This document shows, in pieces, positions 4,736-56,638 of a DNA stretch of 64,000 bases (the stretch's first letter is position 1; the number at the start of each line of letters is the position of its first letter). The notes under the pieces are model-generated. The model made no database searches, had not been told where the DNA came from, and was given only the letters and a program-made list of their open reading frames with translations. The DNA is from a virus. The translations under genes were made by a program, and so were the position numbers. The stretch lies in the IMG/VR virus record IMGVR_UViG_3300028584_001241, one strand, 5' to 3'.

Positions 4736-5398
4736 ATGATTTTTAAAACTCTTGCTGAAAATGAAGAACATTCCAATCTACTTGAAATAGCTCAGCATAT
4801 TACAATAGATCAAACAAATATATTCCCAGAGAAGTTTTTGTTCTATGTGTTTTCAAAATATGATTTACACAGTCTTTCAATGGAGTTTAGAAACAAAAAA
4901 ACAATTTCAATACGTTCTCTGGTTGACCATAAGTTAACCGAAATTGCAATACTTGAATACATGAATAATGGTGATTCAATTATTTTGACAGATGAAATAT
5001 TATTTGAACCGGGCGAAATAAAAAATATAAGTGATCCATTAATAAGAGAGAATGGTTTTGCTAACTACAACAATTATAACAATGTTAAAAAATTCTTAAC
5101 AGTTCCTTTCTTTGGTGATTTAGACTATCGAGTGAGTGCTCAAGCTGCTTACCCTTATGGTGGAGACGCATCCTTACGTTTTGTTAGACATCATAAAATA
5201 AATAATTGGTCATCCACAATAAGTATACTATTAGATTACATAGATAAAACACAAACAAAGTTAACAGACCAAAATCTAAACTCATTTAAAGTCATATTGT
5301 CTGATTTGTTACTTATTGATCTATCTGATGAAAATCATGAATCGTTCATCAGAAATAGTAGTAATTATAATAAATTAATTGGAATGAAACAAATTTAA
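4736..5398 (+). CDS. Hypothetical protein with C-terminal MxxI tag
   Basis: 220 aa ORF ending KLIGMKQI. Confidence 0.7.
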   Translation: MIFKTLAENEEHSNLLEIAQHITIDQTNIFPEKFLFYVFSKYDLHSLSMEFRNKKTISIRSLVDHKLTEIAILEYMNNGDSIILTDEILFEPGEIKNISDPLIRENGFANYNNYNNVKKFLTVPFFGDLDYRVSAQAAYPYGGDASLRFVRHHKINNWSSTISILLDYIDKTQTKLTDQNLNSFKVILSDLLLIDLSDENHESFIRNSSNYNKLIGMKQI

Positions 5399-5476
5399 AA
5401 AATAAATTGAATACCTTACAAATTGACATTTATTCTAAATATTCTAGTATAATAGTAATAAACTTGGATTAGTAAA

Positions 5477-5986
5477 ATGATAAAAAATAATTGTTTGTTA
5501 GATATCAATAACAATCTTGAAGTTAAATTATTATTGTTATCAGTTTATGATGATATTTCTGAAGAAATAAAGAGATTAGATACAATTGCCTATACTCATA
5601 CTGAATTACCTGTCGATCCTGATCTTTTAATCAAAATCAGAAATATATTCTTTGTCATAGGGAATAGAGATAAATTTAAAGAATTAAACTCTGAAATTTA
5701 TGGTTATCATGAGAGTGATACGCTACCTGAATATAGACACATTGCGGTGTATCAAGAACAATCAGAACACTCTTCGGTGCCGGATGGCCGTCATTCTTTA
5801 TATCCTAAAGAAAACTATGTAAAAATTGAAGCCTATAACTGTCGTCTACCTGTCATAAAAATCTACGAAAAAGCAAAAGAAGAACATACTCGTAAAGAAA
5901 TACAAAAAGAAATATACCAGAATGTCTTAAATAGTGCTCATGATTACCTTTGGTATATAATGGAAGAATGTTTTCAAGAAGAATAA
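5477..5986 (+). CDS. Hypothetical protein
   Basis: 169 aa ORF with upstream promoter-like and downstream terminator-like sequence. Confidence 0.65.
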   Translation: MIKNNCLLDINNNLEVKLLLLSVYDDISEEIKRLDTIAYTHTELPVDPDLLIKIRNIFFVIGNRDKFKELNSEIYGYHESDTLPEYRHIAVYQEQSEHSSVPDGRHSLYPKENYVKIEAYNCRLPVIKIYEKAKEEHTRKEIQKEIYQNVLNSAHDYLWYIMEECFQEE

Positions 5987-6098
5987 AAAAGAGTTCAATA
6001 CTCTTTTTTTTTAAATCATATAGAAAAAATGGAGTGTTATTGTTGAATTATGTTTTGCTTTGTGTTAAGCTTAAAGGACTTTTTTAGGGGCTATAATA

Positions 6099-6968
6099 AT
6101 GTTAGAATTACATATAGAAAATTACAAGGAATTTCTTGAGGCAAAAACAGAAATTATAAGTAATGAACAATACAAAATAGTCGAATATGAACAGCTTTTA
6201 TTGGTAAAAAAAGCTGAGCAAGTCAAACGTTCGTTTCTTAAAAAGTTTTTTGATAAAAATGAGCATACAAAAGTTAATGAAATTATTGAAGCCATTCAGT
6301 CTTCTACCCATACAATCGAAAAAACAAAAAAAGAAATTGAAGAACGAAAGGTTTTTCTTATTGAATATGGCAAGAACGCTATTATCGCCAGTAATGATGC
6401 GAATGGTGAAAAAAATAGAAGACTGATAGCTGAAAAAGAAGCTTGTTTTGAAATTAATAGAGTAACCAAAGAAATTGAAGATATTTGTATTATGGCAATA
6501 AAAGCTCTTGAAAATGGTATTCGATTATTAAACGACCTCAACGTTGCTTATCATAAAGGCTTGTATGAACAAGACTATAATGTCTACATGGTTTCGATAA
6601 ATAAGAATTTTGGTGAAGCTATTGCGACGGTATCAAGGTTTAAGAAAGCCGTAAAATATAGTAAAGACCAAATGTTAAATTATGATCCTAAGATTGATAC
6701 CAGTTTTTATGAGCCGTTAATTAATATCATCAATGATGACAACTCAGAGAGTATTGTTCTTCAAGAAAATATGTCATCATCGAATAAATACATACCGATA
6801 GTCAATAATACATTGGCAGTTATTCATGCTAGTTATAAACTGGTTAAAAATCTAAATGAAAAACATACAAAAAGATACAAAGAAAAAGAAGCAGAAGTGA
6901 GCAATTATACTATGGACATCGAGTTAATAACCAGAAAAATGTTAAAAGACAGTGGTATAAAATTATAA
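6099..6968 (+). CDS. Coiled-coil protein, probable paralog of 51847..52734
   Basis: Shared blocks SFLKKFF/NFFKRLF and VSRFKKAV/INKFKKEL, similar length. Confidence 0.7.
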   Translation: MLELHIENYKEFLEAKTEIISNEQYKIVEYEQLLLVKKAEQVKRSFLKKFFDKNEHTKVNEIIEAIQSSTHTIEKTKKEIEERKVFLIEYGKNAIIASNDANGEKNRRLIAEKEACFEINRVTKEIEDICIMAIKALENGIRLLNDLNVAYHKGLYEQDYNVYMVSINKNFGEAIATVSRFKKAVKYSKDQMLNYDPKIDTSFYEPLINIINDDNSESIVLQENMSSSNKYIPIVNNTLAVIHASYKLVKNLNEKHTKRYKEKEAEVSNYTMDIELITRKMLKDSGIKL

Positions 6969-55044: not shown

Positions 55045-55055
55045 TACAGTTCCCT

Positions 55056-55808
55056 TTATATCCCTGACATTTCAACAAGTATTCTTTGTTCTGGTGTAAA
55101 CTCATTCCAAAATAAATGAAAGTTATCTAATGTAATACTAGGAACATCAATAATCTCAGAATCTGATGTAATATCTAGCTGTATGTTTCTTTTTAGATTT
55201 AGTAATCGAGCGACCTTTATGTTACCTTCAATAAACTCAATAAAATCAGAAAATAAATAATCCTCTCTCTCTTCTGGATGTAGGTAATTTATATGGACAA
55301 AGCTTCCTTTTCGATGAAAAATTTTGGCTATCATCACTTTATTTTCTTCGTATTGAAATGACAGCCCTATATTGTTAATTTTAATTGTAGGAGTCTTTCT
55401 AATAAAGAAGCGTTCATTAAATGGAGTTTCAAGACTAATGTTATAGAATGAAGTCCATTGATTATTAACAAAATATAAAGACTCCAATAACTTATCTTCT
55501 GATTTTTCACAATTCTCAATGTATTCAAGATTTTCATCAGTTAAACGAAGCCAAAATTTCTCTTTAACATAAAAATCATCTATAAAAATGAGAAGTATAG
55601 TTGAGTTAACAACCATATAGTAAATTGTTCGAAAAGATGAACTAACATCGGTGAAACCAACATTCAGTAAGAAATCTTTCATAACTTCTTTATTCTCATT
55701 AAAGTAAACTGTTTTACCAATAGTATTCAAAGCAGCAAAAAAGACATCTGCTGGAGTGCTTTCTGTGACAAATAAAATAGCAGGTTCTACATTTTTTATA
55801 TCAAGCAT
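55056..55808 (-). CDS. Tandem paralog family B, copy 3
   Basis: NFHLFW, ends EQRILVEMSGI. Confidence 0.78.
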   Translation of the reverse strand: MLDIKNVEPAILFVTESTPADVFFAALNTIGKTVYFNENKEVMKDFLLNVGFTDVSSSFRTIYYMVVNSTILLIFIDDFYVKEKFWLRLTDENLEYIENCEKSEDKLLESLYFVNNQWTSFYNISLETPFNERFFIRKTPTIKINNIGLSFQYEENKVMIAKIFHRKGSFVHINYLHPEEREDYLFSDFIEFIEGNIKVARLLNLKRNIQLDITSDSEIIDVPSITLDNFHLFWNEFTPEQRILVEMSGI

Positions 55809-55888
55809 GACGTAAACCTCATTAAAAGTTTACTATTATAACACATTGAAGCTATTTTTAGCAATAAAAAAAGGAGCCTAAGCACCTT

Positions 55889-56638
55889 TTATTCAATTAA
55901 CATTTCAATAACCGTCAGTGTTTCTTTATTTATCTTCTGGAAGAATAGATGATAATTGTCTATATTGACATGACTGGTATCAATCAGTGAATTGAGGTTG
56001 GTCGATTTAATAGAACCTTTCTTGTTTTCTACTGAATAAGATATCAACGTTCCATATTCTGAGAATGATAGATCAGTAACAATAAGATTATTATTGTCTT
56101 CATTTGAGATATATTGAACATCAATCACACCAGTAACCCATATTTGTTCTATTCGGTATTTGAAATCTTGATATTTAAAGACTTCATATGTGAAATTGGA
56201 TTCTTCGACATTTAAGTATTTTGGTGAGTCGAAGACTTCTTTGCAAGGTTTCGTATTGCTCTTGATATAGAACTCGTTACCGATAGCCGTTTCTTCTGAA
56301 TCACCTACGGTTGATAGTGTGTGAATATAATTATTATCGTTTAAATTAGTTAAGATATTTAAATTTCTTGGATTGTTTAATATCAATGATTTTCTTGACA
56401 TATAAACTTGTTTTGTGTTGATAATGCCTTCAACAGCGATAAGTAATAGATGTTCACCCATATCTTTAAAGTAATATTCACAATCGGTGACAGCGGGGAT
56501 TGAAATGAAGCCAGCTTGTTTGAATAATTTTCCTTGTAGTCCTATTTCGTCAAATACTGCAGTTTTACCAACTTTGAAAATGATATGCTCTAATTCATCA
56601 ACTGTACTAGGTTTCGCGTATCGTATTCGCTTTTTCAA
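55889..56638 (-). CDS. Tandem paralog family B, copy 4 (divergent)
   Basis: TTG start after AAGGAG; NYHLFF, ends ETLTVIEMLIE. Confidence 0.75.
   Translation of the reverse strand: MKKRIRYAKPSTVDELEHIIFKVGKTAVFDEIGLQGKLFKQAGFISIPAVTDCEYYFKDMGEHLLLIAVEGIINTKQVYMSRKSLILNNPRNLNILTNLNDNNYIHTLSTVGDSEETAIGNEFYIKSNTKPCKEVFDSPKYLNVEESNFTYEVFKYQDFKYRIEQIWVTGVIDVQYISNEDNNNLIVTDLSFSEYGTLISYSVENKKGSIKSTNLNSLIDTSHVNIDNYHLFFQKINKETLTVIEMLIE

Follow-up and report, generated by a model that had tools for sequence, protein, structure and literature searches.

A short C-terminal helix with methionine at position −4 is common to about one in five proteins in a 64-kb stretch of a giant phage-like element

Portable terminal peptides include the sequence by which T4 internal proteins are targeted to the capsid, the cargo-loading peptides of encapsulins and the encapsulation peptides of microcompartments; the T4 sequence is N-terminal and cleaved, and the encapsulin peptides are extended, G/S-rich motifs found on one to three cargos per genome. 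Also, C-terminal tags of the ssrA and SspB types, the ssrA end being ..ALAA, are read by AAA+ proteases. In the Dot/Icm (type IVB) systems of Legionella and Coxiella, C-terminal translocation signals occupy the last ~20–30 residues of hundreds of fast-evolving and mostly orphan proteins (PMC9302130), and in T4 the proteins gp43, gp55 and gp33 bear interchangeable hydrophobic-acidic C-terminal epitopes which bind the sliding clamp (PMC2988020). We have analyzed a stretch of 64,000 nucleotides of viral DNA (IMG/VR record IMGVR_UViG_3300028584_001241, the whole of which is referred to as the window), belonging to a giant, AT-rich, phage-like bacterial element with 31% GC, and observed that about one in five proteins of the window is an orphan carrying a common short C-terminal helix with a methionine at position −4.

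A preliminary description of the window had quoted 16 C-termini as bearing, or being variants of, a shared EMxxI tag, and listing the open reading frames (ORFs) with their ends shows that all 16 are present at the respective ORFs. The observation is borne out and is indeed stronger than was stated: the strict motif [ILVFMA][ILVFMA]-x-M-x-x-[ILVF]-stop is found at 13 of the 84 non-overlapping ORF ends of the window, versus 0.13 expected from its internal frequency (28 matches in 18,265 positions, mostly within transmembrane (TM) segments). Counting each paralog family only once leaves five independent lineages, for which our own arithmetic yields a Poisson P of ~3e-7. Methionine is the commonest residue at position −4, occurring at 17 of the 84 ends versus 3% overall.

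The anatomy of the tail was derived from one representative per family (n=28), and evidences a conserved element of ~14 residues, spanning −14 to −1, with the core motif L(−9)-x-[LVI]-[ILAV]-[E/K]-M(−4)-h-x-[IVF]. The composition of its positions is the following:

Position −9: L or F, 89% hydrophobic (background 38%)
Position −7: L, V or I, 93% hydrophobic (background 38%)
Position −6: I, L, A or V, 75% hydrophobic (background 38%)
Position −5: E (9) or K (5) among the 28 representatives
Position −4: M
Position −3: 68% hydrophobic
Position −1: I (19), F or V

The methionine of the EMxxI tag thus stands, being invariant in the 28 family representatives as well as in over 100 orthologs, with the hydrophobic positions fixed too; the glutamate at −5 is common but not required, and the conserved stretch extends well beyond the five residues initially recognized. 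Indeed, the hydrophobic positions −9, −7 and −6 are constrained though they were not used in selecting the sequences. Further upstream, acidic residues account for 46–50% at −11 and −15 and for 36% at −12, versus a 13% background. They often follow a serine or threonine and, instead of a run of glutamates, look like a helix cap (S/T-x-D/E-D/E).

The generality of the motif was analyzed in a relative of the window, the 181,270-bp IMG/VR record IMGVR_UViG_3300031088_000737, which was obtained from a scan of viral contigs and is collinear with positions 1–64 kb of the window at a DNA identity of 65–92%. It includes, at 100% identity, the syntenic 20.8-kb piece L001, which came from a metagenome scan and belongs to a contig of 1.859 Mb. 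IMG/VR classifies this relative as a provirus, 58% complete. Among its 203 ORFs, 39 end in M-x-x-[ILVFM], 35 of these strictly; the 39 form 27 BLAST families and, after removal of the last 20 residues, remain as ~28–30 phmmer components. A position matrix was trained solely on the six families of the window and applied to those proteins of the relative which are non-homologous to them: at three thresholds, matches at the exact C-terminus exceeded those at internal positions in frequency by 78-, 180- and 340-fold. Since the matrix finds the C-termini of non-homologous proteins, the motif is real, position-locked and general across families. At the DNA level the pattern ATG-N6-ATH-TAR has 60 matches versus 19 for the reversed control. 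As for control genomes, the Tenacibaculum jumbo phage PTm1 (30% GC) has two loose and no strict ends in 294 ORFs, and no excess of the end pattern was found in the jumbo phages RAS14 and XacN1, both of which encode a phrog_21276 domain (see below).

Homologs of all tag families were found in metagenomes only, on contigs which include four of 1.84–1.92 Mb, and all of them retain the tail. A search with the tail profile against 1.84 billion representatives and a 5.8-billion set returned same-clade orthologs only, the profile (35–44 columns) being too short for detecting other families. Two scans of GTDB species genomes gave no match, and a plasmid collection contained no relative of family B, one of the carrier families listed below.

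The carriers evolve rapidly, and their tails less so. Tagged proteins of the window and the relative that are paired by reciprocal best hits (n=14) have a median identity of 53%, versus 86% for untagged ones (n=56; P = 9e-6), and over 10 pairs of tagged orthologs the identity is 68% in the last 14 residues versus 48% in the body. These results agree with what would be expected of a portable tag, namely a tail which is locked in position and more constrained than the proteins that bear it. In addition, the codons of the motif vary synonymously and the DNA after the stop is not conserved, from which it follows that selection acts on the protein and not on the DNA. The tagged genes are clustered, with 19 adjacent pairs (permutation P < 1e-4).

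Within the window, BLAST all-against-all comparison and alignments define the carrier families A, B and C and three singletons (4736, 31168 and 37575, named here, as the other genes, by their first coordinate):

4736..5398, + strand, tagged singleton of 220 residues, end ...NKLIGMKQI, no Pfam match
27497..28192, − strand, family C member with 4 TM segments, decayed tail ...LIEILST (Ile at −4)
28195..28950, − strand, family C member with 3–4 TM segments, end ...DEELTVIEMLGI
31168..31743, + strand, tagged singleton of 191 residues, end ...EEELTLFHMIKI
31756..37559, + strand, family A, seven tandem paralogs, every end NY[LI]xhxEMxx[IV]
31756-32544, 32574-33347, 33375-34151 and 34187-34993, + strand, family A genes 1–4
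35048-35872, 35891-36748 and 36765-37559, + strand, family A genes 5–7
37575..38390, − strand, tagged singleton of 271 residues, end ...ISLISMLLFQ (tag plus one residue)
53443..56638, − strand, family B, four tandem paralogs (53443-54243, 54265-55044, 55056-55808 and 55889-56638), ends in gene order LLAMLLI, LIEMLMV, LVEMSGI and VIEMLIE

The tail of 28195 is kept by all orthologs, those of 31168 retain L[FL]HM[IV]KI, and the ortholog of 4736 in the 181-kb relative (g138695) ends ...NKLIEMINI. One extra C-terminal residue is accepted in 37575, whose orthologs terminate ...LISMLLF and whose diverged paralog in L001 terminates ...IVLQMQVI, as well as in g163920. In the 55889 subfamily the last residue may be a glutamate (...VIEMLIE), which is stable in more than 15 clusters. 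The methionine is replaced by isoleucine in three copies (27497, g89116 and g76195), which are apparently decaying; the ortholog of 27497 in L001 retains the canonical ...IIEMLGI. Insertions between the cap and the constant end amount to four residues in family A and eleven in 4736. Just downstream of 27497, an ORF of 82 residues (27227-27475, − strand) resembles the N-terminal membrane part of family C and is probably the remnant of a third copy.

The view that the protein bodies differ, put forward in the preliminary description, is supported by several lines of analysis. Profile-profile comparison of families A, B and C with hhalign yields probabilities of 0.2–8%, the alignment covering the last residues only, and across families the last 14 residues are strongly similar. 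The carriers range from 124 to 492 residues (median 257), and include soluble proteins as well as three families of polytopic membrane proteins with 3–4 TM segments; none of the tagged proteins has an N-terminal signal peptide, and internal TM segments are present in four. AlphaFold models, which cover two families, have different predicted architectures. In family A (35891-36748, predicted local distance difference test (pLDDT) 85.8) two α+β parts and a long helix precede a short helix and then the tail, which is the last helix (residues 270–284), and in family B (54265-55044, pLDDT 83.8) an α/β domain and a long β-meander are followed by two short helices, of which the last (residues 248–258) is the tail. 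A fold search with VIA-align against 48,161 chains gave disjoint match lists for the two, with best Z-scores of 5.6 for A (no known fold) and 6.0 for B (OspA/TCP10-like single-layer sheets). Foldseek against PDB and BFVD and a wide VIA search returned weak matches only, different for A and B; PDB searched by sequence had no match for A, B or the tail profile, and the ESM Atlas no usable match. Neither of the two outcomes named in the preliminary description as refuting it, a lack of enrichment at C-termini or a single fold for all carriers, is thus seen in the evidence obtained.

No Pfam domain was found in any of 26 family representatives, and searches of the carriers with Pfam, PHROGs and NCBIfam gave no match except for one. 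This is the 492-residue carrier g165353 (165353-166831 of the relative), which has at residues ~105–260 a phrog_21276 domain with 56% identity to stand-alone proteins of 170–190 residues from jumbo and other phages; the stand-alone proteins end without the tail. The domain is common to the jumbo phages RAS14, CM1, XacN1 and Xoo-sp13 and to Pseudomonas phages, and in phage Knedl the respective protein is encoded next to the DNA polymerase gene.

Taken as a whole, we consider it somewhat probable that the C-terminal helix is a portable docking handle common to these proteins and recognized by one partner. The last ~14 residues would form an N-capped amphipathic helix (S/T-x-acidic-acidic ... L-x-[LVI]-[ILAV]-x-M-h-x-[IVF]-end) which dozens of fast-evolving orphan proteins, otherwise unrelated, would have retained or acquired, and which would dock to a single reader, encoded by the element or by its host, whose existence we infer. 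The invariant methionine and the hydrophobic face formed by −9, −7, −6, −3 and −1 would fit one binding groove. The handle might address a diversified repertoire of host-interaction or anti-defence proteins to the transfer, secretion or packaging machine of the element; by analogy with Dot/Icm signals and the T4 capsid-targeting sequence, delivery or export of this repertoire is our tentative suggestion for its use, followed by recruitment to a hub such as the co-encoded ClpA-type unfoldase. A broader proposal, which we regard as possible though well short of probable, is that of a new addressing system, in which a sequence-defined, Met-centred C-terminal helix would mark from several dozen up to several hundred proteins of each element, all diversifying rapidly, for one dedicated receptor; this might be a machine for protein delivery or sorting in a new class of megabase-sized phage-like elements. 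The literature that we searched contained no paper describing the motif.

A number of observations weigh against a common handle. No reader of the tag was found, and the 181 kb examined of a replicon of ~1.85 Mb contain no type IV secretion system coupling protein (PF02534), terminase (PF03237) or β-clamp domain. The membrane proteins among the carriers are an awkward cargo for packaging or export, and the tagged genes have no special promoter or regulon motif in common, only ordinary extended −10 promoters being present. Further, upstream of the tail, as far as about −110, the families show a weak but significant similarity, so that a somewhat larger C-terminal module may have a distant common origin; and the tail is predicted by AlphaFold as a confident helix (pLDDT about 85–88) placed after another helix, and may therefore pack on its own body and not hang free.

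The last two observations relate to a different explanation, which we find unlikely but deserving of serious attention: the carriers may be one ancient hyper-divergent superfamily, or have in common a small C-terminal two-helix domain, so that the last helix would be structural or involved in dimerisation and carry no address. This would agree with the fact that all carriers are orphans of similar size arranged in tandem arrays, with the slight upstream similarity, with the confident tail helix after another helix in both the A and B models, and with a helix-turn-helix-like K-x-L-G-h-S/T stretch which precedes the tail in several families. However, neither profile-profile nor trimmed-sequence searches show a relation between the bodies, the two predicted architectures and their fold-search lists differ, and the range of sizes and the polytopic membrane proteins among the carriers do not suit a single superfamily. 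Also, one carrier joins the phage domain phrog_21276 to the tail, and a methionine invariant in ~28 families, replaced by isoleucine only and in just three copies, would be unusual for a mere core position.

An improbable alternative is that the tail marks its carriers for degradation or unfolding by an AAA+ machine, conferring a short or conditional lifetime. A candidate machine is encoded in the window itself by a divergent ClpA (20149-22449, + strand, 766 residues), which is ~40% identical to gammaproteobacterial ClpA, scores 786 bits versus an NCBIfam cut-off of 993, and keeps, at residue 614, the IGF loop for ClpP docking; no ClpS-like gene adjoins it. Non-polar C-terminal tags are the classic recognition mode of such proteases, as in ssrA, and a tag of this type would serve soluble and membrane proteins alike. 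Yet the tail is unlike the ssrA end, helical and probably packed tails make poor degrons, and it is hard to see why a fifth of the proteins would be under strong purifying selection to keep a degron. Finally, chance, AT-rich composition or a DNA-level signal (a recombination site, a terminator or an overlapping start codon) has a vanishingly small probability: a GC content of 31% does make Ile, Lys and Asn common at protein ends, but the variation of synonymous codons without conserved DNA past the stop, the reversed-pattern control, the composition-matched phage PTm1 and the position-matrix test effectively refute this reading.

In respect to gene context, the untagged neighbours of the tagged genes often have Pfam domains, such as ClpA, Sir2, Pnkp/RNA ligase, RtcB, aminoacyl-tRNA synthetases, GAPDH, protein kinase, NIF phosphatase, DUF4116, OmpA and PilS. 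The 181-kb relative likewise encodes RtcB, several aminoacyl-tRNA synthetases, GAPDH, a eukaryote-type protein kinase, NIF phosphatase, DUF4116 and DUF4379. A structural-protein domain is absent from the Pfam matches listed for it. The slowest-evolving genes lie beside the fastest-evolving ones: a Pnkp-like protein with three domains (kinase, phosphatase and RNA ligase; 41832-44183, − strand) is 84% identical in the relative, and the adjoining HTH_37 protein (40902-41474) is 96% identical. Positions 48735-51313 contain an IS607-type pair, composed of a serine recombinase with a MerR helix-turn-helix (198 residues) and a long TnpB-like protein (661 residues), which has no counterpart at the syntenic site of the relative and therefore looks like a recent insertion. 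Between tRNA-Leu(CAA) and tRNA-Leu(AAG), ARAGORN predicts a tRNA-like gene (63589-63672, + strand) with a four-base anticodon (agcg), which is not called by the Rfam tRNA model.

Should the tail be read by a single partner, one in five of the 'dark' genes in these giant elements would constitute one functional class, which could be listed by a simple motif and whose reader could be retrieved with a 15-residue peptide. This would provide an experimental handle on elements that are otherwise almost without annotation, and would enlarge the small set of portable C-terminal address tags by one that is defined in sequence. Were the new addressing system to hold, the entire cargo repertoire would be legible from sequence alone.

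The comparison with known systems evidences both likenesses and differences. As in Dot/Icm substrates, a terminal signal is found on fast-evolving orphans without Sec signals, membrane proteins included (PMC9302130), and acidic residues around −11 to −15 are combined with hydrophobic residues near the end; however, Dot/Icm signals are degenerate, whereas the tag described here is a defined helix with an invariant methionine at −4, and the 181-kb relative showed neither a Dot/Icm gene nor one for a coupling protein. The clamp-binding epitopes of T4 are alike in that a short C-terminal peptide with hydrophobic and acidic residues docks unrelated proteins on one hub. In the T4 record gp43 ends ...KASLDFLFG and gp55 ends ...SLDFLYEAND, so that the T4 consensus S-L-D-F-L-[FY] lacks a methionine and in gp55 is not locked to the end, in contrast to L-x-h-h-x-M-h-x-I here; the T4 epitope also sits on a flexible linker, and its few DNA and RNA polymerase clients differ from the ~20% of genes, 4-TM proteins included, which bear the present tag. 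No DnaN N-domain (β-clamp) was found in the 181 kb, gp45-type models not having been searched.

With the capsid-targeting and encapsulin peptides the tag has in common a short portable terminal peptide of the kind that sends diverse and variable cargo to one proteinaceous container. No shell or capsid domain is present among the Pfam matches listed for 128 untagged proteins. Contrary to the T4 sequence, which is at the N-terminus and removed by cleavage, and to the encapsulin peptides, which are extended, the tag is a C-terminal helix. The resemblance to ssrA- and SspB-type tags resides in a recognition anchored at the C-terminus and in the ClpA-like unfoldase encoded in the window; the sequences differ, and the tag described here is encoded in the genes of a large set of proteins and conserved as a helix.

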